From Candidatus Eiseniibacteriota bacterium (GTDB lineage Bacteria > Eisenbacteria > RBG-16-71-46), in assembly GCA_031370785.1 (NCBI GenBank), contig JANMQY010000018.1, forward strand, positions 1 to 40,809: a stretch of 40,809 bases of DNA. Direction: 5' to 3'. A program made the position numbers and the translations under genes. Numbering within the stretch: position 1 is the first letter of the stretch; each line of letters begins with the position of its first letter. Positions 1,159 to 40,383 of this stretch are shown here, piece after piece. The notes under the pieces were generated by a model, which worked only from the letters and a program-made list of their open reading frames with translations, searched no databases and was not told the origin of the DNA.

Positions 1159-1161
1159 CTC

Positions 1162-5907: not shown

Positions 5908-5908
5908 G

Positions 5909-7315: not shown

Positions 7316-7317
7316 GG

Positions 7318-8151: not shown

Positions 8152-8184
8152 GAGCAACGCGATCACAGGGAGGTGAAACACCCA

Positions 8185-9432: not shown

Positions 9433-9567
9433 TGCCGCAGTGGGAACAGAAGTTCATGGAGGAGCACGCGTCGTCCATTTGACCGCCACCCCTTGAAGGT
9501 GGGTACGACGCCGGCGGAAAGTCCGCCGGCGCCGGATCCGAAAGGGGCAGGCACAGGGAGAAGTGCC

Positions 9568-19424: not shown

Positions 19425-19847
19425 ATGGCCAGTCAGAAACTCGTTCGTTGTGAGATTCGGCGCCGTGGCGTTGAAGGGCCCGGCTCCCCCCGGTTCATCC
19501 CGCTCGAGATCTTCGGGCTGTGGGAGTACCTCATGGCCACCAAGCACGACTTCGAGGTGGTCCAGTCGCGCGCCTCGCTGTGGCTCGACATGGAAGATTC
19601 CCCGGAGGCGGCCTACAGCGAGAACCAGTTCGATCGCGTGACCGAAGTGACCGCGTTCGTGTACTCGGGGCGGGACGACATGTTCACCAAGGCGTGCCGC
19701 TACTTCCGCAGCGAAGAGTGCCCGGAGCTCAAGAGCATCTTCCTCAAGCACTACAGCCCGGGCGACGGCCGCCCGCAGGCGCACGTGCGCGAGCGCCAGG
19801 GGATCTGGCTGCACCGCGAGCCAAGCACGGTCGAGTCGGTCGCCTGA
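19425..19847 (+). CDS. hypothetical protein (140 aa)
   Basis: GGAGGT SD, own promoter, GC3-rich codons, globular composition; no motif recognised. Confidence 0.8.
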   Translation: MASQKLVRCEIRRRGVEGPGSPRFIPLEIFGLWEYLMATKHDFEVVQSRASLWLDMEDSPEAAYSENQFDRVTEVTAFVYSGRDDMFTKACRYFRSEECPELKSIFLKHYSPGDGRPQAHVRERQGIWLHREPSTVESVA

Positions 19848-19950: not shown

Positions 19951-19978
19951 TCAAGCCCCGCTTCGACCGCGCCGATAG
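19951..19978 (+). promoter_or_regulatory. sigma28 (FliA/WhiG)-type promoter upstream of the mglA-like gene
   Basis: TCAAG-N15-GCCGATAG, same spacing as the promoter before csrA. Confidence 0.65.
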
Positions 19979-20239
19979 AACTCCTGACAGCAGGCGCCGG
20001 GCATGACGCAGCGCGAGCAACAGGGACGGTTCCCGCAGACGGCCTTCAGTGCAGCGCGCCACCAACGGAATCGCGACCCCATCCGGTGCGTGCGGTCGTT
20101 CGTGCATCGTGCTTTGGCATCGGAGTCGGACGGTTCGAGCCACACTCAGGGTTCCCGTGGAGAAAGGGCGGCAAGGGGCTCCATGGGGTTCAAGCTCTGT
20201 GACAGGGTGGGGTCGCTCAGGTTCAGGGAGGAATAGACC

Positions 20240-21307
20240 GTGGTCGTCGTGAGCTATTCAGGCAAAGAGATCAACGCGAAGCTGGTGTATTACGGCGCCG
20301 GCTTGAGCGGCAAGACCACGAATCTCGAGTCCATCTACGAGGCGGTGCCCGACACCAGCCGCGGCAAGATGGTGAGCATGAAGACCCAGTCGGATCGAAC
20401 TCTGTTCTTCGACCTGCTGCCGCTGGACCTCGGCGAGATCATGGGGTTCAAGACGCGCTTCCTGCTCTACACCGTTCCGGGCCAGGTGTTCTACAACGCC
20501 ACCCGCAAGCTGGTGCTCAAGGGAGCGGACGCGATCGTGTTCGTCGCGGATTCCGAAGTCGGCAAGATGGAAGAGAACAAGGAGAGTCTCGGCAATCTTC
20601 GCGCGAACCTCGCCGAGTACAGTCTGAACCTGGACGACCTGCCGTGGGTGATCCAGTACAACAAGCGTGACATCGCGAACGCGTACACCATCGAAGAGCT
20701 GAACGCCGAGTTGAATCCCAACGGCAAGATTCCGTTCTTCGAGGCAGTCGCGACCCAGGGCAAGGGAGTGTTCGAGACGTTCCGCGGCATCTCTCACCTG
20801 CTCATGGAGAAGGTGACCAAGGATCTCAGGCGCACGCCGATGAGCGGCGCGTCGACCGCTCCGGCCAATCCGGTGAAGGATCTGCCGAAGGTCGAGCAGG
20901 GGAAGGCCGAAGCGACCCGCCCCAACATCCTGAACACGCCGCCCGGACGCGCAATCGCCAGGGAAGCTCAGCAGACCGCCAAAGCCGAACCGCCCACGAT
21001 CGGCGGTCTCGACTACGGACGGGAGCTTGACCTTCCGGACGAGATTCCCCCGCGGCCGGCTGCCCGTCCCGCACCCGCTCCGGCACCTGCTGCGCCTGTC
21101 GCGCGCAAGGTGATGCCGGCCCCGCTCGCTGCGAGCGAGGCTCCGGCTCCCCGGCGTGAAGCTGCGCCCAGGGCCACCGCGCCTCAGCGCTCGGACGGTC
21201 GCACCGAGGAGTCGTCCTCGGGAGTGATGGTGGTTCCGATCAAGGTGCCCAGAGGCGGCAACCGGGAGATCGTGCTGCGCATCATCATCTCGAGCGAAGA
21301 CGAATAA
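20240..21307 (+). CDS. mglA: MglA-family small GTPase with Pro/Ala-rich C-terminal extension
   Basis: EINAKLVYYGAGLSGKTTNL, DRTLFFD, YTVPGQVFYNATRKLVLKGAD and QYNKRD; GTG start with GGAGG SD. Confidence 0.85.
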   Translation: MVVVSYSGKEINAKLVYYGAGLSGKTTNLESIYEAVPDTSRGKMVSMKTQSDRTLFFDLLPLDLGEIMGFKTRFLLYTVPGQVFYNATRKLVLKGADAIVFVADSEVGKMEENKESLGNLRANLAEYSLNLDDLPWVIQYNKRDIANAYTIEELNAELNPNGKIPFFEAVATQGKGVFETFRGISHLLMEKVTKDLRRTPMSGASTAPANPVKDLPKVEQGKAEATRPNILNTPPGRAIAREAQQTAKAEPPTIGGLDYGRELDLPDEIPPRPAARPAPAPAPAAPVARKVMPAPLAASEAPAPRREAAPRATAPQRSDGRTEESSSGVMVVPIKVPRGGNREIVLRIIISSEDE

Positions 21308-21322
21308 TTGACCCAGGCTTGT

Positions 21323-21376
21323 AACCCGCGCCTTCCGAAGTGGGGTGTTGACATCGGAGGCGCGGGTTTCTACTTT
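21323..21376 (+). terminator. hairpin/possible intrinsic terminator after the mglA-like gene
   Basis: AACCCGCGCCTTCCGA ... TCGGAGGCGCGGGTT followed by TCTACTTT; overlaps TTGACA-N17-TACTTT. Confidence 0.5.
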
Positions 21377-21392
21377 GGGAGGTGACATGCAC

Positions 21393-21848
21393 ATGCGCAC
21401 ACTGCTTCTCGCGAGCCTGTTGAGTTCGGCTCTGGTCCCAACAGCTTCCGCTGGCGATCTGTTCGGCGGGGGCGGAGCGCCCGCCTACGCGCCGTCCGTC
21501 CCGGTCAGCGCGCTGACCCGTCCCGCAGCCTGGCTCGATCCCTCCCGGCTCCACTTCAGCACCTCACTGAGCGTGGGCACCGCGTTCGGGACCACCCAGG
21601 GCCTGCAGGTCACGAGCCTGCACTACGACTTCGCGATTCCGCTCTCGATGAGCGTGAGCCTCGGCAACGCGTGGGGACCGTCTGCGGCCGGCCGCAACGG
21701 CTCGCCGTTCCTCGAAGGGCTGAACCTCACCTACCGTCCGCTGCGCAGCCTGCTGGTGAACGTGCAGTATCGCGACATCCGCTCGCCGCTTCAGTTCCAG
21801 GACCAGAGCCTGCTGCCCCGCTACCTCCGCGACTTCGAGTACCGCTAG
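21393..21848 (+). CDS. secreted/outer-membrane beta-rich hypothetical protein
   Basis: signal peptide MRTLLLASLLSSALVPTASA, alternating beta-strand-like segments; GGAGGTGA SD. Confidence 0.7.
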   Translation: MRTLLLASLLSSALVPTASAGDLFGGGGAPAYAPSVPVSALTRPAAWLDPSRLHFSTSLSVGTAFGTTQGLQVTSLHYDFAIPLSMSVSLGNAWGPSAAGRNGSPFLEGLNLTYRPLRSLLVNVQYRDIRSPLQFQDQSLLPRYLRDFEYR

Positions 21849-21852
21849 CCCG

Positions 21853-22650
21853 ATGTCCGGCGCCACACGCCGGCTGGCTACCGCCTTCGACGCCGCCAGG
21901 GGCCGCACCGGACTCATTCCCTTCCTGACCGCCGGCTACCCATCGATCGACGCCTCGCTCGAGATGCTGCGCGGCTTCGCTCGCCTCGGGGCGCGCGCGG
22001 TCGAGATCGGCGTTCCGTTCTCTGATCCGATCGCCGATGGCGCCGAGATCCAGCGCGCCTCGGAATGGGCGCTGGCGCGACACGTCGGCCCGCCGCAGGT
22101 GCTCGAGCTGGTGGCCGCGCTGCGCCGCGAATCGTCGCTGCCGGTGGTGGTGATGACCTACGTCAATCCGGTGCTGCGCGGCGGCATCGAGCGGTTCGCC
22201 GAGGCGGCGCGCGATGCCGGAGTGGACGGCGTGCTGCTCTCCGACCTTCCTCCCGAGGAGTCGCCCGAAGTGTGGGCCGCCCTGGGCGCCGCCGCGCTCG
22301 ACACCATCATGCTGGTGGCGCCCACGACCGATCCGGCGCGCGTCGCCCAGATCGTCGCTCGCGCCAGCGGATTCGTGTACTGCCTCGCGCGCACCGGAGT
22401 GACCGGCGAGTCGGGCGGCTACGGCGGCGCGCTCGACGAGCGCATCGCACTGATCCGCCACCACACCCGGTTGCCGGTCGCAGTGGGCTTTGGAATCTCC
22501 AATGCCGAGCAGGCGCGTGCGCTCAAGGGTCAGGCCGACGCTGTCGTCGTGGGCGCCGCGTTCATGCGCGCGGTCAGTGAAGACCCCGCTCGCGGGGCGA
22601 CCGATCGCGTCGAGCGCCTGGCCGGGGAGCTGGTCGGCGCGTTGAGCTGA
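21853..22650 (+). CDS. trpA: tryptophan synthase alpha subunit
   Basis: PFLTAGYP, EIGVPFSDPIADG, MTYVNP, DLPPEES, RTGVTG and VGFGIS motifs. Confidence 0.95.
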   Translation: MSGATRRLATAFDAARGRTGLIPFLTAGYPSIDASLEMLRGFARLGARAVEIGVPFSDPIADGAEIQRASEWALARHVGPPQVLELVAALRRESSLPVVVMTYVNPVLRGGIERFAEAARDAGVDGVLLSDLPPEESPEVWAALGAAALDTIMLVAPTTDPARVAQIVARASGFVYCLARTGVTGESGGYGGALDERIALIRHHTRLPVAVGFGISNAEQARALKGQADAVVVGAAFMRAVSEDPARGATDRVERLAGELVGALS

Positions 22651-22949
22651 AGCTTCGCGCGAAACACGCAATCCAGGCCCCAGCGGCGTGTCTCGATGGG
22701 AGATAGGCGACTGACTTTGCGCCGTCGCGCGACCCCATCAGGGGCGCGAGCGGCAGGCGCGAGGCACCCGCGCGCGAGGCAAGCACGACGGCGCGAGCGA
22801 TCGCGTCCGCGTCCGTTCGCTTCAGCTCGCTCTACCTTCGGCGCCCCGGACCGTCTAGACTGCCCCTTCGTACACCACCGTCGCGCGCTACATGCTGTGC
22901 GCGAGGGACATGCCAGAGAGTCGCTGGAGACGCCACGGTCAATCTCGCA

Positions 22950-22977
22950 TAAAGCCGACTGTGTTTCTTGCCGATAC
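22950..22977 (+). promoter_or_regulatory. sigma28 (FliA/SigD/WhiG)-type promoter for csrA and the flgM-like gene
   Basis: TAAAG-N15-GCCGATAC, 55 nt upstream of the csrA ATG. Confidence 0.75.
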
Positions 22978-23032
22978 ACTGATCATCCAGGGGTGCAGAC
23001 GCACCGAACCAGGGAGTGGAGGAAGCTTCACG

Positions 23033-23260
23033 ATGCTTGTCCTAACACGGAAGTTAGGAGAGAACATTCGGATCGGCGACTCGGTGAAGATCACCGTGCT
23101 CGAAGTTCGATCCGGTCAGGTGAAGCTCGGGATCGAAGCCCCACCCGAGGTCAAGGTCCATCGGGAAGAGATCTATGCCCGCATCCAGGAAGAAAATCGC
23201 AGAGCACGACTCTCCGAAGGCGGAGCGGATACCCCTCCGCGTCGCGAACCCGAAAAGTAG
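23033..23260 (+). CDS. csrA: carbon storage regulator CsrA (FliW-type, Asn55)
   Basis: [16 protein letters not shown]...[20 protein letters not shown]; Arg44 and Asn55 present. Confidence 0.96.
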
Positions 23261-23342
23261 GACTGAGGCCGCCATCGATTCCCGGCGCCCGCGCTCCACT
23301 CCGCCGCCGACTTCTGCTCCGTCGCCACGGCGCCGTCCGGTA

Positions 23343-23540
23343 GTGACCAGCTCGCATCCCCATCCAGGCGAGGCTTCGCCTCGCGATCGCCGTGAAGCCG
23401 CCGACCGCGCGCATTTCGAGAGTGTGCGCTGGTCCCGGGTCAAGACCGCGCGCGCACGCATCGCCGCCGATTACTACGAGCGTGGCGAGGTGAAGGATCG
23501 CGTGCTCGACGCGTTGATGGACGAACTGCTCAAGCCCTGA
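23343..23540 (+). CDS. FlgM-like anti-sigma28 factor (putative; start uncertain)
   Basis: VRWSRVKTARARIAADYY...VLDALMDEL resembles the FlgM C-terminal VR.DKV..LK..I..G.Y...IA..L pattern; follows csrA behind a sigma28 promoter. Confidence 0.55.
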   Translation: MTSSHPHPGEASPRDRREAADRAHFESVRWSRVKTARARIAADYYERGEVKDRVLDALMDELLKP

Positions 23541-23555
23541 CCCCCGGTTGCACCG

Positions 23556-23592
23556 ACGCCCGCCTTCGCCAGGGATGCGGGCGTTTGCTATT
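23556..23592 (+). terminator. GC hairpin after the flgM-like gene
   Basis: ACGCCCGC ... GCGGGCGT followed by TTGCTATT. Confidence 0.35.
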
Positions 23593-24768
23593 GTGCCGCG
23601 GATGGAGTGTTCATGGCTGTGAAGCGCGCCCGTGCCCGGGAGGAGGCGCCCCCCGAAGCCCTGCTCGGCGCACTTCTCGACGACCTCGAGACCGGCGTGA
23701 TCCTGCTCGATCCCAAGGGCCGGGTGACCGAGGTCAATCCGGCCGCGCGATTCATGCTCAACGCCGCGGCCGCCCGTGGAGCGCGCCCGCGCCGCCCGCT
23801 CAGCACGCCCGCAAAGACCCTGCTGCGCACGGTGGTGGCCGGCGACGATCCGGTGCGCGAGGGATTCTCGCGCGCCCGCACCGAGCGCGAGACCGTGCTG
23901 GTGGGAGAGGACGGCGGCGAGGTCCCGGTGCTGCTGCGCACGCGGCGCGTCGGGAGTCCGGCGTGGCTGCTGATCACGCTTCGGGATCTGAGCCGGGTGC
24001 GCCGCGTCCAGCAGGAGCTACGCCGCCACGAGCGCCTCGCCACGCTCGGCCAGCTCTCGGCCGGCATCGCCCACGAGATCCGCAATCCGCTCGCCGGGAT
24101 CGGCACCAGCGCGCAGGTCCTGCTGCGCCGCTTCGAGCCGCGCGACGAACGCGCGCGCTTCGTGCAGGTGATCCTCGAGGAAGTGGGGCGCCTCGATCGA
24201 ATCGTCACCAGCCTGCTGCAGTACGCGCGCCCGCGTACCCCCGAGCTTCGGCCGCTGGCGATCGCGCCATGCATCGAGCGCGTGCTCGAGCTGTCGTCCG
24301 ATGCGATTGCGCAGGCGGAAGTGAAGGTGGAAGTGGACGTGGCATCGCGGCTCGGCGAAGTCTACATTGACGGTGACCTCGTGACCCAGGTGCTGCTCAA
24401 CGTGACCCTGAACGCGATTCAGGCCATGCCCTCGGGCGGCACGCTGCGCTACGAGGTGCGCCGCGTGCGACGCCGGGCGCCGCCGCGGGGTCCGGGACGG
24501 CGCGCCGGAGATCAGGGGGCTACGGAAGGCATGCCGCGCGCGCGGCTCGAATACCAGCAGGTGCGGATCAGCGACACCGGGGTCGGCATCCCGCGCGGGG
24601 TGCTCTCCAAGCTGTTCGATCCGTTCTTCTCGACCAAGCCGCAGGGAACCGGCCTTGGTCTGTCGATCTCCCAGACCATCATGCAGGAGCACGGCGGCGG
24701 TATCGAAGTGGCGAGTCATCAGGGACGCGGCACCACCGTGCTCCTCAACTTCCCCATGGAGAAACGAC

Positions 24769-26175
<1,407 letters not shown>

Positions 26176-26187
26176 TCGCCCGCGCAG

Positions 26188-26230
26188 CGGAACGTCCCGG
26201 CAGCCCGGAACGCCTTTCCGCCGCGGAACG
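26188..26230 (+). repeat. three CGGAACG direct repeats with exact 18-bp period
   Basis: CGGAACG at 26188, 26206 and 26224. Confidence 0.8.
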
Positions 26231-26538
26231 ATGGTTGTCCTCAAGGCCCGAAGGCCCCTCCACGCTTCGGTCGGGCACCGACCAGTAATCGGTCGCGGCC
26301 CATCTCCGGCGCAATGAGGTTGGACGGGCGAAATGGCCCCGCCGGGTGCGATCCTGCATTGGCCCCGCTTCTCACTGCGCTTTTTCCCCCGCACCCGCCC
26401 TCCTCTCGCTCGTCACCGAATTACGCGCTAACTCCGCGCTCCTGAGTCGACTCGGCTGTTCAGTGGAGGCAGGACGCGAGCCCGGATGAGCGTCGTGCCG
26501 GGCCCGGGTCGAAGACGGCTTCGAGTGGTTCTCCCGGA

Positions 26539-26554
26539 TGGCACGCGGGCTGCA
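26539..26554 (+). promoter_or_regulatory. sigma54 (-24/-12) promoter
   Basis: TGGCACG-CGGG-CTGCA, exact GG-N10-GC spacing, 40 nt upstream of the ATG at 26594. Confidence 0.8.
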
Positions 26555-26593
26555 AAAGCCCCATCACCACCTACCAACCGGGAGCCCAAGCCA

Positions 26594-26989
26594 ATGCCGC
26601 ACATCCTGATCGTCGAAGACGAGCCGTCGACCGCCTGGGCCCTGGCTGAGGGACTCTCGGACGACGGCTTCTCCATCGATACCTTCGCCTCGGCGGAGGA
26701 AGCGCTGGAGTGGCTCAGGACCGGCAAGAGCGACCTCGTCATCTCGGATCTGCGCCTTCCCGGCATGAGCGGCCTCGACCTCGCGAAGAAGCTGCGTCGC
26801 GGGCGCTGCGCCCAGCCGGTGATCATCGTCACCGCCTACGGTGGTCCCGACACGCTCGACCAGCTGCGTCGCGCCGGCATCGCCGACTGCTTCTCGAAGC
26901 CATTCCGCATCGACATCCTGCGCCGCTCGGTGCGCAGCGCGATCGAGCGCAGCGTCACGCGCCGCCCGCGCATGCGGAAAGCCGCCTGA
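26594..26989 (+). CDS. single-domain response regulator
   Basis: ILIVEDE, DLVISDLRLPGMSGL, IIVTAYG and SKPF; GGGAG SD. Confidence 0.9.
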   Translation: MPHILIVEDEPSTAWALAEGLSDDGFSIDTFASAEEALEWLRTGKSDLVISDLRLPGMSGLDLAKKLRRGRCAQPVIIVTAYGGPDTLDQLRRAGIADCFSKPFRIDILRRSVRSAIERSVTRRPRMRKAA

Positions 26990-27315
26990 TGCGCACCGCA
27001 TCCCGCCGCCCGCGCATCGCGCGTCGCGCTCTCGAGGCCTCGCGCCGCGCGCCGGTCTCCGGCCTGGCACGCGAGCGCATCGCCACCGCGCTCGAGCTGT
27101 GCTCTGCCGAGGAACGCGCGCTGCTCTCGATGATGCTGCTCGAGGAGATGACTCCGCTCGAAGCGGGGGAGGCGATGGAGCTTTCGGCGCGCGAGGTGTC
27201 GCGCACCTACACGAACCTGCTGGCCGCGTTGCGTCGCACCCTGCGCGGAATGAATTTCCGCTCCGCGCCCCGGGCTGCGCTGATCGCCCGCGAGCGCATG
27301 CGGAACGCGTCATGA
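26989..27315 (+). CDS. sigma-factor region-4-only protein (FliA C-terminus-like)
   Basis: TGATG-coupled to the receiver gene; ALELCSAEERALLSMMLLEEMTPLEAGEAMELSAREVSRTYTNLLAALRRTL aligns without gaps to region 4 of the FliA at 28474. Confidence 0.7.
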   Translation: MRTASRRPRIARRALEASRRAPVSGLARERIATALELCSAEERALLSMMLLEEMTPLEAGEAMELSAREVSRTYTNLLAALRRTLRGMNFRSAPRAALIARERMRNAS

Positions 27316-27557
27316 ACACGAGCCGCGCCTTCACCTCGAGCTCCGATCTGGACCGCTCCATGCCGGACAATCTCGCGGCGCGTCTCGACCGCATCGAGAT
27401 CGCCACCGCATCGCTGCGCGCGGAAGTCGTCCGCCTCGAGCGCCTGGGTCTGGCCGGGGCCGCGAGCCGCTGCCGCGAGCAGCTGCGTTACTGGGAATTC
27501 CTCGGCGTGCTGTTCTTGCTCACGCCGGACGGTTCGTTCCACGGGGAGGCCGCGTGA
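27312..27557 (+). CDS. small helical hypothetical protein (81 aa)
   Basis: ATGA overlap upstream and GTGA overlap downstream, so translationally coupled on both sides. Confidence 0.65.
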   Translation: MNTSRAFTSSSDLDRSMPDNLAARLDRIEIATASLRAEVVRLERLGLAGAASRCREQLRYWEFLGVLFLLTPDGSFHGEAA

Positions 27558-28459
27558 GTGCGGCGCGCTCCGGCGGCGCCGGCGGCGTTCCGCTCAAGCT
27601 GGTTCCGCGCGGCGACAATGACGCCCAGCCGGACACCGAGAACCATCCGGCGAGCTGGAGCCGTCCGCACGTGCGCACCATCGCGCTCGCGAGCGGCAAG
27701 GGTGGCGTCGGCAAGAGCACGCTCGCCGCAAACCTGGCGGTCGCGCTCGGCGAGCGTGGCGCTCGCGTGCTGCTGGTGGATGCCGACCTGTCGCAGGCCA
27801 ATCTCGACCTTCTGCTCGGGGTACACCCGCGCTTCGACCTGCAGCACGTGCTCTCGGGCGAAAAGACGCTGGAAGAGATCCTGGTGAGCGGGCCGAAGGG
27901 CGTGACGCTGGTGCCCGCCGCTTCCGGCGTGCCCGAGCTGGCCGATCTCGACGACTACCGGCGCGAAATGCTGCTGCGGGGCCTGAGCCTGCTCGAGGCC
28001 GAGATCGACCTGATGCTGATCGACACCGCTTCCGGCGTCTCGCGCCAGTCGACTTCGTTCTGTCTCGCCGCCGACGAAGTGGTGGTGATGACCTCGCCCG
28101 AGATGCCGGCGTTCTCCGACGCCTACGGTCTGGTCAAGCTGCTTCAGGCGCAGGGCATCAAGCGCGCGCCACACATGCTGGTCAATCTGGCGACCACGCC
28201 GGAGGAAGCCGAAGAGACCGCGCACCGCATCCGGCTGGTCGCGCGCCGCTTCCTTCGTCTCGAAATCGAGTGCTGGGGCTTCGTTCCGTTCGATCCGGCG
28301 ATCGCCCGGTCGGTACGACTCCAGGAACCCGTGATGACCGCTTTTCCTCAGTCGCCCGCCGCCGTGGCATTCCGCGCGATGGCCGAACGCCTGTGGCCGT
28401 CCCCGCAGCCCGATAACGACCGCTCGTTGCCGTTCACCCCTGAACGGCTTCAGGCCTGA
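27554..28459 (+). CDS. flhG: MinD/ParA-family ATPase FlhG/FleN
   Basis: ASGKGGVGKS, DADLSQANLDLLLG, LVPAASG, IDTASG and DAYGLVK; directly upstream of fliA. Confidence 0.85.
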   Translation: MSAARSGGAGGVPLKLVPRGDNDAQPDTENHPASWSRPHVRTIALASGKGGVGKSTLAANLAVALGERGARVLLVDADLSQANLDLLLGVHPRFDLQHVLSGEKTLEEILVSGPKGVTLVPAASGVPELADLDDYRREMLLRGLSLLEAEIDLMLIDTASGVSRQSTSFCLAADEVVVMTSPEMPAFSDAYGLVKLLQAQGIKRAPHMLVNLATTPEEAEETAHRIRLVARRFLRLEIECWGFVPFDPAIARSVRLQEPVMTAFPQSPAAVAFRAMAERLWPSPQPDNDRSLPFTPERLQA

Positions 28460-28473
28460 GACAGGAGCTCCGC

Positions 28474-29304
28474 ATGCCACGCTCCGCCGCCGCCAAGCCC
28501 GCTGCCCCACGTCTCACCCTGGTCCGTCGCCGCACTGCCGTGCGCGCTGTGCCGGAGCCCGCACCGCAACCGGTGACGTACTGCAAGAACGACCTGCTCA
28601 AGCGCTTCACGCCGCTGGTGAGGCACGTGGTCGAGCGCGTCGCGGCGACCCTGCCGCGCAACGTCGACCACGAGGATCTGTACTCCGCCGGAGTGCTCGG
28701 ACTGCTGGATGCGCATGCCAAGTTCGACACCGGCAAGGGCGTGAAGTTCGAAACCTATGCGGTGTGGCGCATCAAGGGCGCCGTGCTCGATCAGCTGCGC
28801 GCGCTGGACTGGGTGTCGCGTTCGATGCGGCGCAAGGCGCGCAATCTGGACGGCATCACCCGCAAGCTCGACCAGAGGCTGGGTCGCGCCGCCTCCGAGG
28901 AGGAAGTCGCGCGCGAGATGAAGATGAACCGCGCGGACTTCTACCGCCTGCTCGACCACGTTCGCGGAGCCGTGCTGGTCTCGCTCGACGAGAGCCGCTC
29001 CGGCGACGATCAGGAGCCCTCGACCCTCGCCGATCACCTGGCGGATCCCAACGCCCCGGACCTGGAAGCGAGGCTCGAGGACGAGCAGACCCGCCACGTC
29101 ATGCTGCGCACGCTCGACCAGCTTCCCGAGCAGGAGCGGCTGGTCGTCGCGCTCTACTACTATGAGCACCTCACGCTCAAGGAGATCGGACGCACGCTCG
29201 GCATCTCCGAGTCCCGGGTCTCGCAGGTCCACACCCGTGCGATGCTCCGGCTGCGCCTCAGGCTGCACAAGGCGGTGGTCGGCGGCGAGGAACGCGCGGC
29301 GTGA
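28474..29304 (+). CDS. fliA: RNA polymerase sigma28 factor FliA/WhiG
   Basis: EDLYSAGVLGLLDA, KFETYAVWRIKGAVLDQLRALDW, LYYYEHLTLKEIG..LGISESRVSQVH. Confidence 0.93.
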   Translation: MPRSAAAKPAAPRLTLVRRRTAVRAVPEPAPQPVTYCKNDLLKRFTPLVRHVVERVAATLPRNVDHEDLYSAGVLGLLDAHAKFDTGKGVKFETYAVWRIKGAVLDQLRALDWVSRSMRRKARNLDGITRKLDQRLGRAASEEEVAREMKMNRADFYRLLDHVRGAVLVSLDESRSGDDQEPSTLADHLADPNAPDLEARLEDEQTRHVMLRTLDQLPEQERLVVALYYYEHLTLKEIGRTLGISESRVSQVHTRAMLRLRLRLHKAVVGGEERAA

Positions 29305-29702
29305 GCACCCGCCCCTCTCAGCACCCGGCGATGCCGGGCGGAGCGCCGTACGTGGCGCTGGCCGAGCGCCTTCGAACGCTCGCCGTGTCGCTGGACGCCG
29401 GCGTGCCGGCCGAGGCGACCCTGCTGCGCGAGCTGGTGGCGCAGTGGGAGAACGAGCAGCGCGAGTGGGACGAACGCATGCTGCGCATACTGTCGTTGCA
29501 CCACGACATCAACAACGCGCTGGTCGGCGTGCGCGGCAACGCGCAGCTGCTTCTGCTGAGCCCGATGGGCCAGCAGCCCGGCGCGAAGGATCGCCTGGAG
29601 ATCGTGATCCGGGAATCCACCCGTATTCGGGAGGCCGCGAGCATGCTTCGCGAGCTCAAACATGGCTTCAGCGGAATCGGGCCGTCCTCGCGCGCCGCGT
29701 GA
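29301..29702 (+). CDS. stand-alone HisKA/DHp phosphoacceptor domain protein
   Basis: H-box LHHDINNALVGVRGNAQLL followed by second helix RLEIVIRESTRIRE; no ATPase domain; GTGA overlap with fliA. Confidence 0.75.
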   Translation: MSTRPSQHPAMPGGAPYVALAERLRTLAVSLDAGVPAEATLLRELVAQWENEQREWDERMLRILSLHHDINNALVGVRGNAQLLLLSPMGQQPGAKDRLEIVIRESTRIREAASMLRELKHGFSGIGPSSRAA

Positions 29703-29712
29703 CGGTGCTCCG

Positions 29713-30639
29713 GTGAGCGACGTTGCGCGCCATGCCGACGGGCACGGTGCCGTCGCCGACCGGCGCCGGGCCTCGCGCTCGCTGTGGGCCGCATGCGAAG
29801 CGCTGCTCAGCGCCTCGGCCGACCCGCGGGCGCTGCCGCGTGCCCTCGACCGGCTGCTCGCCGCCTTCGAGTGCGATGGGGTTGCGCTGCACGCGCTCTC
29901 GCCCGGCGGCCAGATCGAGCCGTGGTGTGCGCGCGGGCTGTGGCGCACGGCGCCCGGCGACCTGCGCGACTGCCTCAGTGTCCCCTTGCTGCGCGGAACC
30001 GAACGCATCGGCACGCTCGACCTGCTCGCGCGTCCCGGGCAGCGCTTCCGCGCCGGGCACCTCACCTTGATCCGCACCGCATCCGGTGCGCTCGGCGCCG
30101 CGCTCGGCGCGCGCTTCGAGCTGGAGCGCTTGAGACACCTGCCCGGTCGCGACCCGGTGACCGGACTTCCCGATGCCCGGGTGTTCCACACCCGTCTCAC
30201 CGAGGAGCTGGCGCGCGCGCGCCGTCACGGTGTGGCGCTCTCAGTGGTGACGCTCGACCTCGACCACTTTGCCGCGCTCAATGCCCGTTACGGTCGCCCG
30301 GCCGGCGATGAGACGCTGGCCGAGGCCGCACTGGTGCTCAAGCTCACGCTGCGCGATTCCGACTTCCTCGCGCGGCTTGGCGGCGACACGTTCGCCGCGC
30401 TGCTGCCCGAGACCGACTCCGCCGCCGCGCGCCGCGCCGCGGATCGGCTGTGCCGCACTCTGGAGGAGCACCACTTCCCGCGCGTGGGCCGCATCACCAG
30501 CTCCGCCGGCGTCGCGGCCAGCCCGCGCGACGGGATGGACGCGCTCGAGCTCATGAACGCGGTCGACACCGCCCTTTCCACCGCCAAGAAGTCCGGACGG
30601 CGAAGGGTCGCGTCCTCGCCCGCGACCCGGACCCATTGA
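29713..30639 (+). CDS. GAF-like plus degenerate GGDEF protein
   Basis: DPVTGL, DLDHF and RDSDFLARLGGDTF (I-site RxxD present, GGDEF changed to GGDTF). Confidence 0.85.
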   Translation: MSDVARHADGHGAVADRRRASRSLWAACEALLSASADPRALPRALDRLLAAFECDGVALHALSPGGQIEPWCARGLWRTAPGDLRDCLSVPLLRGTERIGTLDLLARPGQRFRAGHLTLIRTASGALGAALGARFELERLRHLPGRDPVTGLPDARVFHTRLTEELARARRHGVALSVVTLDLDHFAALNARYGRPAGDETLAEAALVLKLTLRDSDFLARLGGDTFAALLPETDSAAARRAADRLCRTLEEHHFPRVGRITSSAGVAASPRDGMDALELMNAVDTALSTAKKSGRRRVASSPATRTH

Positions 30640-30656
30640 TTCCGGGAGGACCCGCG

Positions 30657-32393
30657 ATGCCACCGACACCCGAGGAGACGGTGGGAGCCGCCCCGGCGCC
30701 CGCATTGCCCGTGCCTCGCGTGCTGGTGGTGGACGACGAGCCCTCGGTCGTCGACGTCTTTCAGGAGTTCCTGGGCGGGCAGGGCTACGCGCTGATCATC
30801 GCCTCGAGCGGCGAGGAGGCGGTGCGCCTGATTCCCGAACTTCGCCCCGACATCATCCTGACCGACATCAACCTGCCGGGACTCTCGGGTCTCGAGGTGA
30901 TGCGCTACGCCAAGTCCGTCGACCCCGAGGTCGCGGTCATCGTGGTCACCGGCTACGCCTCCGCCTCGACCGCGATCGACGCCCTGCGCCAGGGCGCGTT
31001 CAACTACGTGACCAAGCCGTTCGACCTCGACGAAGTGCATCAGATCGTCGAGCGCGCGGTTGCGAACCGCCGCCTCAAGGCCATCAACCGCGAGCTGGTC
31101 GAGGACCTGCGCCAGAAGAACGAGATCCTGCAGCACCACGAGCAGGAGCTGCGCGAGCGGGTGCGGGTCGCGACCTTGCAGATGACCGCGCTCTACGATG
31201 TCGGCAAGGAGATCATGGCCGACCTCGAGCTGGCGCCGCGTGTCGCCATGATCGCCGGCAAGGCCGCTGCCCTCTCCGGGGCAACGGGCGCCATCATGTA
31301 CCTCAAGCGGGGGGAGAGCACCGATCTCCACCCGGTGACCGCGCACGGCCTGGTCCTGGCGCCGCCCGACGAGGTCGGGTGGATCCTCGGCAAGGCCGGG
31401 CCGATGGCGGTGCCCATGCTCGAGCAGAAGCCGGTGCGGGTTCGCTTCGCTCCCGGAGATGAGCCGCTGATCCTGCCCGGTGTGCCCGAACACCTGGTGA
31501 CCTCGCTGCTCGCGGTGCCGCTCATCACCGGTGGCGAGACCATCGGTGTCCTCGCGCTGGTGAACAAGCCCGAGGGATTCCACGACGACGACGAGAGCTT
31601 CATGGCGCTGTACGCCTCGCAGGCCGCGGCCGCCGTGCGCAACTCGCAGCTGTACGAACACACCAAGAGCCTGGACCGGCTCAAGTCCGAGTTCGTGGCG
31701 GTGGTCTCGCACGAGATCCGCACGCCGCTCACCTCGGTCAAGGGCGCGGTCGAGCTGCTCGCCGACGACCGGTTCTTCAAGAACACCGATCAGCAGACCA
31801 AGCTGCTCACCATCGCGCACGCCAACACCGAGCGTCTGCTCGAGCTGATCAACGGCATCCTCGACTTCTCGAAGCTCGAAGCGGCTTCGCTGCCGATGAC
31901 CGTCGAACGCCAGCGAATCGAGCCGGTGATCCAGCAGGCCGCGCACAACATGAGCACGCTGATCAATCAGCGGCGCATTCATCTCGAGGTGCATCTCGCC
32001 TCGGACCTGCCCGACCTCATGTTCGACGCCAATCGGGTCGCGCAGGTGATCACCAACCTGCTGTCGAACGCCATCAAGTTCTCGCCCCAGGACGGCAGGA
32101 TCGAGATCCGCGCGGAGCGCTGGGAGGGCATGGTACGGGTGGGAGTGGGCGACGAGGGAGAGGGGATCTCGAACGCCGACCTTCCCAAGCTGTTCAAGAA
32201 GTTCTCGCAGATCGATTCCGGATCGACGCGCAGGGTCGGAGGGACCGGGCTCGGTCTTGTGATCTGCAAGGGCATCGTCGAGCAGCTCGGCGGCAAGATC
32301 TGGGTGGAGAGTGTTCCCGACCAGGGGAGCACGTTCTACTTCACGCTGCCGCTCGCCGATTCGGTCGAAGCGGCTTCCTCGGCCGCCGCCTAG
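30657..32393 (+). CDS. hybrid sensor kinase REC-GAF-HisKA-HATPase
   Basis: VLVVDDE receiver, GAF (LLAVPL..GETIGVL), SHEIRTPLT, NLLSNAIKFS, DEGEGI and GGTGLGL; GGAGGA SD. Confidence 0.92.
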   Translation: MPPTPEETVGAAPAPALPVPRVLVVDDEPSVVDVFQEFLGGQGYALIIASSGEEAVRLIPELRPDIILTDINLPGLSGLEVMRYAKSVDPEVAVIVVTGYASASTAIDALRQGAFNYVTKPFDLDEVHQIVERAVANRRLKAINRELVEDLRQKNEILQHHEQELRERVRVATLQMTALYDVGKEIMADLELAPRVAMIAGKAAALSGATGAIMYLKRGESTDLHPVTAHGLVLAPPDEVGWILGKAGPMAVPMLEQKPVRVRFAPGDEPLILPGVPEHLVTSLLAVPLITGGETIGVLALVNKPEGFHDDDESFMALYASQAAAAVRNSQLYEHTKSLDRLKSEFVAVVSHEIRTPLTSVKGAVELLADDRFFKNTDQQTKLLTIAHANTERLLELINGILDFSKLEAASLPMTVERQRIEPVIQQAAHNMSTLINQRRIHLEVHLASDLPDLMFDANRVAQVITNLLSNAIKFSPQDGRIEIRAERWEGMVRVGVGDEGEGISNADLPKLFKKFSQIDSGSTRRVGGTGLGLVICKGIVEQLGGKIWVESVPDQGSTFYFTLPLADSVEAASSAAA

Positions 32394-32527: not shown

Positions 32528-34261
32528 ATGATGGCACCCATGAGCGCCACGGACGACGCCCAACCCAGGAATCATCACGGCCGAACGCGCGGTAGCGCGG
32601 CCGGCGTGCTCGCGCTCGCGGCGATTCTGCCCGGCGCGCTACTCGGCGCGGCGATGCTCACGCTGCCCGACTTCCTTCCCTCGCTCCCACGATACGAGTG
32701 CGTGATTCCCTGGCGCGGGCCGGCCCCCGGGTTCGCGAGCGCGGCGTGGGGTGGCGAGCGCGCGGCGCTGGTGCTCGGCGGCAACGCGCTCAGCGCGCGG
32801 GCGCCCGGCGCCTCGGCCGCGCGCGCGTTCGCCGAGCGCCTCGCGCTGGCGCGGGCCACCGGTAGCGCTCCGGCCGGAAGGCGCGAACGCCTTCGCGCCG
32901 ACCTCGCGCGGCGCGACCTCGCTCCGCAGCCCGCGCTCGCGCCGGCGACCGAGTGCGCGGTGCTGCTGCGCGCGCGCGCGGCGATCGGGCGCGCTCTGGC
33001 CGGCGACGGCCCGGTCGGCGCCGAGGATGCGTCGAATGCCATGCCCGCCCTGATGCTCGAGGCCGATCGCGCGGTCGAGCAGGCAGCGCTCGCGCTCGAC
33101 CCCGCCGCGTTGCGCAGCGCGCTCACCGCTGCGGATCGCGCCGAGGCGAGCTGGCTCGGGACGCTGGCGCGCACCGAGCGTGCCGGGATGTTCGAGAGAT
33201 GGCGCGAGCGCGAGCGCGGCCGCGCGGCCGAGTTCGACGACGCGGCCTCGGTGCTGCTGGTCGAGGTGACCGAATTCCAGCGCGAGCTGGCCGGGTGGTG
33301 GCTGCCCGAGTTGGCGCTGCGGCTCGAGCCCGGCACGCCCGACGCCGGATCGGCCATCGCACAGGCGTCGGCGGCTTCTCTGCCCGAGCCACGGCCGTGG
33401 TGGCCGGCGTGGCTCGCCGCCGCGCTGTGCGGCGCGCTGCTCGTGAGCACCGGAACCTTCGCGCTCGCCCGCAGTCGTCCGATGCGGCGCTTCTCCGAAG
33501 ATCCGGTGCGACGCGCCTCGCCGCAGACGAGCGAGGCGTGGCTGCACATCGTGAGCGGGAGGGACCCGGCTCACATCGCGCGGGCGATGCTCGACCTGGC
33601 CGCGCAGCTGACGAGGCCCGGGCAACGCACGCTCCTGATCGATGGCGCCCGCCGCCTGCTTCTGCACGAGCAGCTCGGCGCCGATTCGCGCTTCGGGCTC
33701 GCCGATTGCCTGGCCGGCGAGATGCCGCTGCTGGCGGCAACCCAGCAGGTCGGCGACGAGGGTCTCTTCGTGCTGGCCCACGGCGAGGCGGCGCGCGGCG
33801 AGCGCTGGTCCGCCCTTGGCCGGCTGCTCGAGGAGGCCCGGCCTCAGTTTGGCCGCGTGCTGCTCGCGATCGACGCTGCCGCGCCGCAGGCGGCGGGGGA
33901 CGCGCTCATGGGCCGGGTGCTGGAGGGCTGGTGGGCCGGCTTCGGACCGGGTCTGCCGAAGCTGGCGCTCGCGCTCTCGGAACGGACGGGCATATCATTC
34001 ACGTCCTTGACGTTGTCCGAATTACCCGAAGCATTGCCCGAGGTCCGCTCCAAGCGCCTTCAGGTGCTCCGTCCTGCGGATGTCACCCCCCAGACACTCC
34101 CCGCCATCACGCCCGCGACCGCCACAGCCGCGACGCGGCCTGAGGAGGTCGTGCTGGACTGCGACTTGCACGTCCGACAGCGGCTCCGGTTCCTCTTCTG
34201 GATGCGCCGCATCCAGGCCGAGAGCCAGCGTGAGGCCGTGACGCCGGCAAGCCGGCCCTGA
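32528..34261 (+). CDS. degenerate Wzc/CpsD-like membrane protein (TM-periplasmic-TM-pseudo-ATPase)
   Basis: two hydrophobic segments flanking a helical region; C-terminal LAAQL..GQRTLLIDG...LHEQLG...GLADCLAG typical of BY-kinase/MinD folds, but no Walker A GK[ST]. Confidence 0.55.
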   Translation: MMAPMSATDDAQPRNHHGRTRGSAAGVLALAAILPGALLGAAMLTLPDFLPSLPRYECVIPWRGPAPGFASAAWGGERAALVLGGNALSARAPGASAARAFAERLALARATGSAPAGRRERLRADLARRDLAPQPALAPATECAVLLRARAAIGRALAGDGPVGAEDASNAMPALMLEADRAVEQAALALDPAALRSALTAADRAEASWLGTLARTERAGMFERWRERERGRAAEFDDAASVLLVEVTEFQRELAGWWLPELALRLEPGTPDAGSAIAQASAASLPEPRPWWPAWLAAALCGALLVSTGTFALARSRPMRRFSEDPVRRASPQTSEAWLHIVSGRDPAHIARAMLDLAAQLTRPGQRTLLIDGARRLLLHEQLGADSRFGLADCLAGEMPLLAATQQVGDEGLFVLAHGEAARGERWSALGRLLEEARPQFGRVLLAIDAAAPQAAGDALMGRVLEGWWAGFGPGLPKLALALSERTGISFTSLTLSELPEALPEVRSKRLQVLRPADVTPQTLPAITPATATAATRPEEVVLDCDLHVRQRLRFLFWMRRIQAESQREAVTPASRP

Positions 34262-34434
34262 CTGAGCGCCACCTCCATTCGCAGTTCCGCAGTTCCGCTC
34301 GACCGGTTCGCCGCATTTCGGCGCCGGCCCGCGCAAGAGACCAGAGCGCCGCATCGTGCGCTCCGTGCTCGCGCCGCCGTTCCCGAGAAGCGCTCGCCCC
34401 GCGTTCCCGCGAGACCTGCACAAGGGCGGGTTAC

Positions 34435-35439
34435 ATGCGTGCTGTACTTCTCGAGAACCTGGATGCCGTCGGCGCCGCTGAGGGCGATGCCGATATACAC
34501 GCCGCGGCGCTGCGCGCGGCGGGCTGGACCGTTCATGCCGCGGTCGTGGGGCATGCCCCCGCCGCCGCTGATTCACTCTGCCTCGTTTCCCGAGAGCGGC
34601 TCACGCGATTCACGCGAGACGTGACCGGTCGCACTGGAGTGCGCGAGCTGGTGGCGCACGCCAAAGCCGACGCGGTGTTCGTGGCCTCCGGCGGGTCCGG
34701 TGGCGGCGATGTCGCCGAGTGGCTTCCCGTGGGGTCGCCGGCCTGGTGGTGGCCCACCGCATTTCTTCCCGGAAGCCCGCGCGGCGGCGCGCTCGAGCCG
34801 CTGGGTCCCGAGTTCGCTCACGACCCGACCTGCTGGGCGGTGGGAACGCTTCCGCGCGCCGGTCGTGGATTGCTCGCGCTGTGGGACGGTGACTTCGTGA
34901 TGTCGCCCGGGCCGCTTTCGGGCGGCGCGGGACGCCTCGCGCTCGATGCTTTCGCCGCGCTCGACGACTCGTGGAGCGGCGTCGAGTTCGTGGTGCTCGC
35001 CCATCCGCAGCCCGAGTTCGAAGTCTACGCCCGCACGCTCGGCATCGGACCTCGCCTCCACTTCGCGGGTCCCGCACCGCGCGAGGCCGAGCACTCGTGG
35101 CTGCTCTCGACCTCGGCCGTGCTGATCGCGGGCGATGAGCCGCTCGCGGGAGGCGCCGTGCTTCGCGCGCTCGCGAGCGGTGCGCCGCTGCTCACGATCG
35201 GAGTCGGCGGCGTCTCGGGAAAGGTGCGCTGCACCTTGACCGACCTCGGCTGTAAGCCTCCGCCTGCGCACGATGCGACGAGCGCGGCACTCGCGCTCGA
35301 TGAGGCGCTGCAGCGCACCGATCCCGTCGAGCAGCGCTGCACTGCGGGTCGCGCGGTGGCGGGCGCCTTCAGCCTGAGCGCGCTCACTGCGCGCCTTTCC
35401 CCGTTGATGGCGCCGCGCCGTCAGAAGCGCGCCGCGTAG
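34435..35439 (+). CDS. divergent GT-B glycosyltransferase-like protein
   Basis: LRAAGWTVH, RLHFAG and VLRALASGAPLL resemble the GT4 fold, but without the canonical acidic motif. Confidence 0.5.
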   Translation: MRAVLLENLDAVGAAEGDADIHAAALRAAGWTVHAAVVGHAPAAADSLCLVSRERLTRFTRDVTGRTGVRELVAHAKADAVFVASGGSGGGDVAEWLPVGSPAWWWPTAFLPGSPRGGALEPLGPEFAHDPTCWAVGTLPRAGRGLLALWDGDFVMSPGPLSGGAGRLALDAFAALDDSWSGVEFVVLAHPQPEFEVYARTLGIGPRLHFAGPAPREAEHSWLLSTSAVLIAGDEPLAGGAVLRALASGAPLLTIGVGGVSGKVRCTLTDLGCKPPPAHDATSAALALDEALQRTDPVEQRCTAGRAVAGAFSLSALTARLSPLMAPRRQKRAA

Positions 35440-35480
35440 CGGCCCGACAGACCTGCGGTCCGCCGGCCGCATGCCGCGGT

Positions 35481-35509
35481 TTGCGCCTTACGGCACGGGC
35501 CGCTAACTT
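35481..35509 (+). promoter_or_regulatory. sigma70-type promoter for the epimerase
   Basis: TTGCGC-N17-TAACTT. Confidence 0.45.
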
Positions 35510-35552
35510 ACCGAACCTCGGCCCCGTTCCACCCACCCTCATGGAGGACGAC

Positions 35553-36479
35553 GTGCGCATTCTGGTGACCGGAGGAGCGGGGTTCATCGGCTCCAACGTG
35601 GTGGATCGCTTCGTCGCGCTCGGGCACGAAGTCGCGGTGTTCGACGACCTGTCGAGCGGCGTGCGCGAGTTCGTGAATCCGAAGGCGAAACTCTTCGAGG
35701 CCGACCTCACCGACGCCGCGGCGGTCGAGGCCTGCTTGGCCTCATTCCGGCCCGAGGTCGTGGACCACCACGCGGCGCAGATCGACGTGCGCAAGTCGGT
35801 CGAGGACCCGATCCACGACGCGCGCACCAACATCCTCGGCGCGCTCGCGCTGCTGCAGAGCTGCACCCGGCATGGGGTGCGCAAGTTCGTGTACGCCTCG
35901 ACCGGCGGCGCGCTCTATGGCGAGGGCCGCACGCTTCCCGCCACCGAGGATCATCCGGTCAATCCCGAGTCGCCCTACGGGGTGAGCAAGCACACGCTCG
36001 AGCACTACCTCTATTTGTGGAAACTGCTCCACGGGCTCGACTATACCGTGCTGCGCTACCCGAACGTCTATGGCCCACGCCAGAACCCGCACGGCGAGGC
36101 CGGTGTGAACGCGATCTTCATCGGGCTCATGCTGCACGGAAAGCACCCGAAGATCTTCGGGACCGGGGACCAGGTGCGCGACTATCTCTACGTCGGCGAC
36201 GTGGTGGACGCGAACGTGATCGCACTCGAGCGGGGAAGCGGCGAGATGTTCAACCTCGGCACCGGCGTCGGAACCTCGGTCAACGACATCGTGCGCGAGC
36301 TGAACTCGATCCTGGGCACCCGGCTGGATCCGATCCACGAGCCGCCGCGCGCCGGCGAGGTGCAGCGCATCTACCTCGACGCCACGCGCGCGAAGCAGGT
36401 GTTGGGCTGGGCGCCCAGGGTGAGCTTCCGCGACGGGCTCACCCGCACGGTCGAGTGGTCGCGTGAGGCCGGGGTCTAG
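35553..36479 (+). CDS. NAD-dependent nucleotide-sugar epimerase/dehydratase (UDP-glucose 4-epimerase-like)
   Basis: VTGGAGFIGS, YxxxK (YGVSK), RYPNVYGPRQ and RDYLYVGD; GTG start after GGAGG. Confidence 0.92.
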   Translation: MRILVTGGAGFIGSNVVDRFVALGHEVAVFDDLSSGVREFVNPKAKLFEADLTDAAAVEACLASFRPEVVDHHAAQIDVRKSVEDPIHDARTNILGALALLQSCTRHGVRKFVYASTGGALYGEGRTLPATEDHPVNPESPYGVSKHTLEHYLYLWKLLHGLDYTVLRYPNVYGPRQNPHGEAGVNAIFIGLMLHGKHPKIFGTGDQVRDYLYVGDVVDANVIALERGSGEMFNLGTGVGTSVNDIVRELNSILGTRLDPIHEPPRAGEVQRIYLDATRAKQVLGWAPRVSFRDGLTRTVEWSREAGV

Positions 36480-40267: not shown

Positions 40268-40383
40268 AGCGCGGCATGCTAGCAGCGCGCTCCGGGAGCC
40301 GCCACCGATGGGGCCTGGAGAGTCGAACCGCGAAGCGTCGACGCGAGGAATCGGTTCTGCCGCGTCCGCTGGAACCGGCGCTG

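Follow-up and report, generated by a model that had tools for sequence, protein, structure and literature searches.

A locus of flagellar regulators without flagellar structural genes in an Eisenbacteria genome, and its predicted sigma-28 regulon

Flagellar regulators in a genome without a flagellum

We analysed a stretch of 40,809 nucleotides (nt) from a Candidatus Eiseniibacteriota bacterium (contig JANMQY010000018.1 of assembly GCA_031370785.1; referred to as the window), which carries a series of flagellar-type regulatory genes, including csrA, flhG and fliA, together with sigma-54- and sigma-28-type promoters. The window is contig C102 in its entirety of the source genome (G000; 3.44 Mb, 68% GC, completeness 100%, 147 contigs), which belongs to f1 in our grouping of relatives into families (f1, f2 and so on). 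As listed in Table 1, the parts that an earlier note on this DNA had named (csrA, a FlgM-like gene, a kinase, a sigma-54 activator, flhG, fliA and the promoter sites) are all present, most of the genes with Pfam-type domain matches; position 19951 marks the sigma-28 site ahead of mglA and not a gene. The sigma-54 site at 26539, placed in that note ahead of the flhG-fliA operon, is the same in every aligned locus. In the flagellated relative G027, a sigma-54 site lies ahead of the same receiver gene and also ahead of flgB. The conserved non-coding blocks upstream of this site in the window are candidate binding sites for the activator.

Table 1. Coordinates of the features of the locus in the window.
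Feature	Position	Strand	Remarks
Sigma-28-type promoter	19951..19978	+	~260 nt upstream of mglA; orthologous site in 11/11 f1/f3 loci, absent in G025
MglA-family small GTPase (second), long Pro/Ala tail	20240..21307	+	No adjoining mglB; predicted sigma-28 target
Sigma-28-type promoter of csrA and flgM-like gene	22950..22977	+	
CsrA, FliW-type C-terminal tail replaced	23033..23260	+	Pfam CsrA; NCBIfam equivalog above cut-off
FlgM without its N-terminal half, C-terminal core retained	23343..23540	+	Alignment with full-length FlgM of G025
Cytoplasmic PAS histidine kinase (HK1)	23607..24830	+	Phospho-His box intact
Receiver-AAA-HTH sigma-54 activator	24769..26175	+	GAFT-type motif and receiver Asp intact
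Conserved non-coding blocks	26279..26331	+	210-260 nt upstream of sigma-54 site; 11-locus alignment
Sigma-54 -24/-12 promoter of fliA operon	26539..26554	+	Invariant in 11/11 f1 loci aligned
Stand-alone receiver domain	26594..26989	+	Orthologue in G025 flagellar locus
Stand-alone sigma-28 region-4 paralogue, altered recognition helix	26989..27315	+	Best solved matches of its profile: FliA/WhiG region 4
Conserved 81-amino-acid protein, no family	27312..27557	+	11 orthologues aligned
FlhG/FleN (MinD-type) ATPase	27554..28459	+	Deviant Walker A KGGVGK motif intact; partner FlhF absent
FliA (sigma-28)	28573..29304	+	Regions 2, 3 and 4; TIGR02479 and PRK06986 above cut-off
DHp-only (HisKA-like) protein	29301..29702	+	Kept in f1, f3
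GAF-GGDEF protein	29713..30639	+	Degenerate active site GGDTF, RxxD kept
Receiver-GAF-histidine kinase	30681..32393	+	Last gene of ancestral flagellar operon

No flagellar structural gene had been noticed in the window, and this now extends to the whole genome. Searches of G000 for the FlhA, flagellin, rod, FliW and FliF families gave no matches while the positive controls were found, and family searches revealed neither a FliF/YscJ family member nor FlhA. With the flagellar-region proteins of two relatives as queries, tblastn returned only paralogues from G000 (F1 ATPase, OmpA, FlgD-Ig and M23 domains), and the FlhF proteins of two relatives found at most a paralogue of the signal recognition particle type (E 8e-6). 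These searches brought up no full flagellar gene set elsewhere in the genome, nor any flagellar structural genes that the regulators could control within G000. The CsrA-FliW-flagellin partner switch is likewise missing, FliW and flagellin being absent and the C-terminal helix of CsrA replaced. The absence of che genes holds for the 40 kb of the window but not for the genome, where one che cluster, with a sigma-28 site ahead of it, is located on contig C34.

Descent from a flagellar locus and repeated loss

In the flagellated f2 genome G025, which belongs to the same taxonomic order as G000, the same slot between mglA-trpA and wzi is occupied by a complete flagellar locus of ~60 kb (gene names mostly from translated starts, some Pfam-checked). 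It begins with flgFGAHIJNKL, fliW, csrA, glycosyltransferase genes, fliC, fliS, fliD, flaG, flgM and anti-sigma-type genes, continues with the kinase, activator, receiver, cheR, cheY, the region-4 protein, a second kinase/activator pair, flgBC, fliE-J, fliK and flgDE, and ends with motAB, fliL-R, flhB, flhA, flhF, flhG, fliA, the GGDEF gene and the last kinase. The FlhG orthologue follows flhF here as well as in G027 and G029. The window shows this gene series minus the structural genes, in unchanged order, and by orthology and order we read the G000 region as the ancestral flagellar locus after deletion of all structural genes, with the regulators left in place. The synteny check that the earlier note had proposed bears this out, as the comparison found the reduced order in 10 more loci of f1 and in 2 of f3 (one of the f1 loci is cut off by the edge of its contig, and the blast threshold missed some small genes). 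The idea of a self-contained island, on the other hand, has to be given up: the locus appears to be the residue of a flagellar one, and its predicted regulon (~40 sites) is spread over the genome. Between flgM and the kinase, the G025 locus also contains HDOD, SpoIIE, anti-sigma kinase, STAS and HEAT genes (L022:938-5947, named by eye), possibly a partner-switch module that was lost from this slot in G000.

The same outcome recurs among relatives. Among 153 genomes, each at least 85% complete, FlhA scored above cut-off in 53, FliA was matched in 147 and the FlgM core in 131 (of the 22 misses, two are known through family tallies). Cross-reading these tables, the 100 genomes without FlhA have kept FliA in 97 cases and the FlgM core in 86. 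In a FliA tree of 43 rows, made with a quick method and drawn unrooted from the midpoint, there are five pairings of natively flagellated with non-flagellated rows (f2 with f1 and f3, G084 with G085, G062 with G067, G074 with G075, and G050 with f9), with Shimodaira-Hasegawa-like approximate likelihood ratio test (SH-aLRT) supports of 84-100. If FliA was inherited vertically, these pairings imply that the flagellum was lost at least five separate times. The leftovers differ by lineage: flgN and fliW remain in G075 together with part of a flagellin gene, fliW in G053 and G067, and fliN- and fliO-like pieces in f18. At the locus, flhG is missing in f4, f5, f11, f12, f14 and f17. The last kinase and the kinase/activator pair are present wherever the compared stretch reached, except that f17 has no last kinase there and that in f18 the pair lies elsewhere or is absent; fliA is found in 21 of 21 non-flagellated loci compared, which follows from how the regions were chosen.

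The regulators could nevertheless be ordinary flagellar ones, either because the assembly lacks the structural genes or because the regulators serve a second flagellar system. G000 is indeed fragmented, and FlhA was found in 19 of 60 family genomes, some f1 genomes having a second flagellar system. However, the deletions fall at several points inside one contig of G000, they are shared by the single-contig FlhA-less genomes G013, G086 and G160 and bridged by a 28-kb contig of a relative, and the second system has its own distant FliA (36-42% identity). We consider this explanation extremely improbable, and count it as already refuted for G000, barring a closed genome to the contrary.

This second, patchy system occurs in f1 and in other families (L017, L018, L020, L026, L144) and probably arrived by horizontal transfer; a third flagellar type, which is more distant, occurs in G100. 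In G001, a genome of the same genus as G000 with no FlhA match, an orphan set of the other system (activator, flhG, fliA, FlaF and a FlgM-like gene; L019:9276-14350) shows the same retention pattern a second time.

The predicted sigma-28 regulon and its conservation

The sigma-28 motif of G000 is TCAAG-N15-GCCGAWA, and the cognate promoter TAAAG/TCAAG-N15-GCCGATAA is enriched ahead of genes. The pattern that the earlier note had suggested for a genome-wide scan, T[AC]AAG-N15-GCCGATA, occurs 11 times in G000, compared to 0-2 times at other spacings. Scanning with a weight matrix seeded from 16 G000 sites gave 42 intergenic sites at N15 and 0-4 at eleven other spacings, and 44 of 2615 genes scored at least 15 bits, versus a mean of 2.8 at wrong spacings. 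Over 41 genomes, the strict pattern was matched 311 times and its reversed control 4 times. Since the same motif lies ahead of fliC and flgN in the flagellated G025, it can be tied to FliA, and we infer that these promoters are read by RNA polymerase with FliA.

In G000, such sites are present at five separate pilus units. These are an operon of pilB, pilT, pilC, a sensor kinase, a sigma-54 regulator and a pilin (15.2 bits; PilB above the TIGR02538 cut-off, the names PilS and PilR for the kinase and regulator being given by position), a second pilB with a motif for cyclic di-GMP (c-di-GMP), followed by an HD-domain gene (21.0 bits), a minor-pilin operon (18.1 bits), the pilM...secretin operon (pilMNOPQ, 12.2 bits) and accB-pilU (19.7 bits). 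Three pilin genes were checked, and each has a sigma-54 site but lacks one for sigma-28. Further predicted targets are a tetratricopeptide repeat (TPR) protein with a partial SgmX match below cut-off (21.3 bits), lptC-lptB-rpoN (18.6 bits), mglA, cheA, an ExeA-like ATPase, HEAT and HD-domain (HD-GYP-like) genes and several PAS/GAF hybrid kinases.

The sites that are conserved among relatives include those ahead of csrA-flgM, mglA, type IV pilus operons, genes for c-di-GMP signalling and kinases, and lptC-lptB-rpoN. Of 29 pilB loci, 20 have the -10 box of the site at the corresponding position (20/22 in f1, 0/7 in f3) and none has it in two control windows, and sites were found at the second pilB in 23 of 28 loci and at lptC-rpoN in 22 of 29; from each of these three comparisons one locus was dropped as too short. 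The two sites proposed earlier, at 22950 and 19951, both hold up: the csrA site scores at least 14 bits in 12 of 13 f1/f3 loci, 50-60 nt upstream of the gene, and in none of five loci with fliW upstream, and the mglA site is present in all 11 loci from f1 and f3, the two nearest non-flagellated families, but not in G025. Of 20 strict-site genes of relatives with a G000 homologue (at least 40% identity), 15 have a site in G000 too, compared to 82 of 2630 genes overall; these 20 come from 40 strict sites in four relatives of f1 and f3 and two more sites in a fifth relative, a selection from the strict matches listed. Sites at pilus genes reach beyond f1 and f3 and into flagellated genomes. In flagellated f2 genomes a site precedes pilR in two of three, and G025 has sites ahead of minor pilins and of two signalling genes common to G000. 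G078, which is independently non-flagellated, has them ahead of a pilin, a pilin ABC transporter and accB-pilU, and G038 ahead of a pilC-like gene and a pilin, while in G053 one precedes mglA. Some candidates were discarded: sites ahead of HK1, the last kinase and galE are not conserved, and a string resembling the motif, which five loci have at the pilB 3' end, was left uncounted because conserved codons account for it.

The retained genes also appear to be under selection. Relative to G001, and with the reservation that high GC deflates the synonymous distance, the ratio of nonsynonymous to synonymous substitutions (dN/dS) is 0.05 for fliA, 0.06 for csrA, 0.25 for both the activator and the receiver, 0.39 for flgM, 0.45 for the 81-amino-acid gene, 0.58 for the DHp gene and 0.96 for the region-4 gene, with 0.36 for trpA. 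FliA is 81-94% identical over most of the family. These values point to a cascade that is maintained by purifying selection and still functional. A decaying, presently functionless remnant of a recent flagellar loss would fit the relaxed look of the region-4 protein, the DHp protein and the GGDEF motif, as well as the fragments of flagellin, FlgN, FliN or FliO that persist in some lineages. It does not fit the strong constraint on FliA and CsrA, nor promoters that are conserved over ~20 genera, nor the targets mglA, pilB and rpoN, which appear to have been gained after the loss. Decay is thus very unlikely. For FliA, CsrA and the kinase/activator pair it is largely refuted, but it may hold for single accessory genes. 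The GGDEF motif is intact in five of five natively flagellated loci read and degenerate in nine of nine full f1 loci read and in G000, where the protein lacks the GG(D/E)EF of active diguanylate cyclases, a site that varies in the family; the GAF-GGDEF protein is likely a c-di-GMP binder or a decaying cyclase.

The scan gave some further sites. The best sigma-28 site in the genome precedes a DUF6982 gene (C83:62478-62936, L035), with the same site in G014 and G002, and provides a strong handle on the function of this family. Five G000 sites without a close called gene (C61:327, C83:99115, C129:840, C95:1800, C34:1087) possibly belong to small RNAs or microproteins. Downstream of a PDZ-SpoIIE gene (L003:3895-4098, minus strand), a sigma-28 site that is conserved is followed by a conserved leader, for which Rfam gave no match, and a hydrophobic microprotein of 18-20 amino acids (aa) ending in two Trp and Arg. 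Of 15 loci examined, 12 show this arrangement, from genomes with and without flagella, including L001, L004-L007, L011, L012, L015, L023 and L032, and in G000 it extends from C15:22115 to the contig end.

A probable rewired cascade and its possible output

The conserved sites ahead of pilus, polarity and signalling genes suggest that the residual flagellar locus is alive and rewired, and we think it probable that it still works as a transcription cascade, with a pilus or surface programme as its likely output. In the proposed scheme, the PAS kinase would phosphorylate the sigma-54 activator, and sigma-54 polymerase would transcribe the operon from the receiver gene through flhG-fliA to the last kinase. 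FliA would then transcribe from ~40 promoters, covering type IV pilus motor and assembly operons, MglA, the SgmX-like TPR protein, the che cluster, HD-domain and hybrid-kinase genes and glycosyltransferases. Its action on lptC-lptB-rpoN would be a positive feedback on sigma-54, which together with PilR would drive the pilins, whereas csrA and the truncated flgM would provide negative feedback. The wiring from sigma-54 to FliA to csrA, flgM and mglA that the earlier note had drawn is thus backed by conserved sites. Ancestral FliA presumably served some pilus and signalling genes beside the flagellar ones such as flagellin, which would be the reason that the regulators survived flagellar loss; f1 would then have gained the pilB, mglA and rpoN targets and the dedicated csrA-flgM promoter. 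The end result is likely a pilus-based, surface-motile or surface-attached cell state. Of the outputs considered earlier, polarity or surface motility is favoured by the type IV pilus operons and rpoN in the regulon, and for a developmental programme no evidence was found.

Several points weigh against this reading. All regulation is deduced from sequence, the activator was assigned to the sigma-54 site by adjacency, gene starts were set by our own simple gene caller, and the matrix scores of G000 are partly circular, since the matrix was seeded from its own sites. Many predicted targets have no tie to pili (ppx, malate synthase, SpoIIE, glycosyltransferases and unknowns). The pilB site is family-specific, being absent from seven of seven f3 loci (strict -10 box) and seven of seven further f2-f6 loci, and the rpoN site is present in 21 of 21 f1 loci and in only one of eight others. 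None of the 3-7 strict sites in G160, G086, G073, G075 and the flagellated G050 lies at a pilus gene, and those of G086 show no excess over the control.

FliA might instead be alive as a general sigma factor for stress, starvation or differentiation, with the pilus genes as late, family-specific additions that were not the cause of its retention. The majority of the ~40 targets indeed belong to signalling, the envelope or metabolism, FliA persists in several non-flagellated lineages in which no site was seen at a pilus gene, and precedents exist in Chlamydia (PMC10597470) and Streptomyces (PMC13595943). Yet pilus-linked sites occur in f1, f2, f3, f4 and f15, flagellated genomes included, the sites in G000 are spread over as many as five pilus units, and a known stress or sporulation regulon is not evident among the first genes of the targets. 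We regard a general stress role as unlikely, though worth keeping in view, and prefer the rewired cascade with a pilus or surface output.

The FlgM of the window alone falls below the Pfam threshold, 4 of 12 aligned orthologues having a Pfam FlgM match, and a profile comparison with solved structures gave no real match. Homology covers the C-terminal core, but there is neither the N-terminal part nor a type III route for export; the f1/f3 proteins are 47-85 aa long, without the N-terminal half of the 106-aa FlgM of G025. This truncated FlgM is predicted to lie under FliA control. Export by way of the hook-basal body is the known release route of FlgM (PMC13595943), and because the FlgM core is kept in most FlhA-less genomes, another release mechanism should exist. 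The change in CsrA matches the FlgM truncation: its helical tail is found in all five fliW-bearing loci and in f3, and is replaced in seven of seven f1 loci read. Few Eisenbacteria CsrAs are predicted to repress flagellin mRNA (PMC13443453), which fits a changed role. A scan for CsrB-like RNAs gave 266 GGA-rich windows and no discrimination, as the genome has such a high GC content. The three feedback loops envisaged earlier remain hypothetical, since FlgM has no export route, flhG has been dropped in several lineages, and CsrA has neither FliW nor the FliW-type tail.

As a hypothesis, the region-4-only protein is a candidate FlgM decoy or release factor. This would resemble the PhyR-NepR-EcfG system, in which a sigma-like domain beside a receiver could titrate an anti-sigma factor (PMC4598750), but in PhyR both region 2 and region 4 are joined to the receiver, and the G000 protein is region 4 only, encoded by a separate and weakly conserved gene. 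The core pN/pS relative to G001 is 0.28 for FlgM and 0.85 for the region-4 protein, and this weak constraint speaks against a decoy, as do the occurrence of the protein in flagellated relatives and of FlgM without a region-4 gene at the locus (f17, G053, G075). A phylum search with the region-4 profile matched all sigma factors and gave no clean count. Proteolysis of FlgM or simple stoichiometric buffering may serve equally well. A full secretion-free switch, in which the region-4 mimic from the same sigma-54 operon, beside the lone receiver, pulls the non-exportable mini-FlgM off FliA, and FliA-driven rpoN locks the checkpoint on, toggling a pilus/MglA surface lifestyle across most of the phylum, would be a doubtful extension.

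Polar flagellates use hierarchies of sigma-54 and sigma-28 such as FleQ/FleSR-FleN-FliA-FlgM and FlgSR-FlhFG-FliA. The G000 locus shares with them the kinase and sigma-54 activator, the sigma-54 promoter for an flhG-fliA operon, FliA, FlgM and CsrA, and would descend directly from such a locus; it differs in having no export apparatus, flagellin, FlhF or FliW, in the loss of half of FlgM, and in its non-flagellar targets. Chlamydia has a type III secretion system, and G000 has none. In this likewise non-flagellated organism sigma-54 is epistatic to sigma-28, whose regulon as described comprises two genes (PMC10597470). Co-option of sigma-28 is thus already known, also from WhiG. WhiG, notably that of Rubrobacter, stems from a motile ancestor and was turned to type IV pilus and c-di-GMP genes, but according to the same account FlgM was lost there and replaced, after a duplication, by the c-di-GMP-armed RsiG (PMC13595943), whereas in G000 and its relatives the original FliA, FlgM, FlhG, CsrA and sigma-54 tier have repeatedly stayed in place. 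In Bdellovibrio, FliA has a broad non-flagellar attack-phase regulon with a near-identical motif (PMC3627812), and a pilus hub of MglA without adjacent MglB, a TPR partner and the degenerate GGDEF protein CdgA acts with type IV pili (PMC3983030). However, Bdellovibrio is flagellated, no evidence of predation was found for G000, and for the G000 interactions the parallel is one at gene level. A search of titles and abstract starts, with most subscription journals outside its coverage, returned no account of the Eisenbacteria locus or of FliA and FlgM kept in place after flagellar loss. The distinguishing traits would be the repeated collapse of the locus in place, the persistence of a FlgM that cannot be exported, and a regulon rich in pilus genes with feedback on rpoN. 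The phylum may be seen as having run the same deletion experiment several times over on a textbook circuit, in which FliA was nearly always, FlgM usually and the sigma-54 tier also kept through at least five apparent losses, and intermediate stages are still visible. With such repeated losses, the question of how a regulon outlives its machine becomes testable, and for this uncultured group the scheme predicts a pilus-based lifestyle together with its promoters.

Some observations concern other parts of the data and the window. Two RNA runs (X1 and X2; 18% of words) were rejected as expression evidence: the depth is flat and a 28-kb contig spans genes on opposite strands, as expected if the reads are DNA from a relative ~94% alike, so that they carry no information on expression. 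An Rfam search of the window gave no matches. For the 81-aa protein there is no Pfam family, its Atlas matches remained below 0.9 and gave no family, and a FliJ remnant was discarded (profile comparison probability 0.3%). The window MglA matches solved MglA structures over residues 3-194 (E ~1e-70), and the mglB-mglA pair of G000 sits on contig C124. Two conserved proteins without a Pfam or NCBIfam family (19425-19847, dN/dS 0.12, and 21387-21848) flank mglA across the phylum. Positions 49-10716 hold a dcw cluster of the usual kind, from murF to ftsZ, and after it a TPR gene, rpmB and recG, in the same order as in G025. After the operon (32606-36479 and 38696-40387) come an unknown membrane protein, a GT1 glycosyltransferase, an NAD-dependent epimerase and wzi, the first two being variable or missing among relatives.

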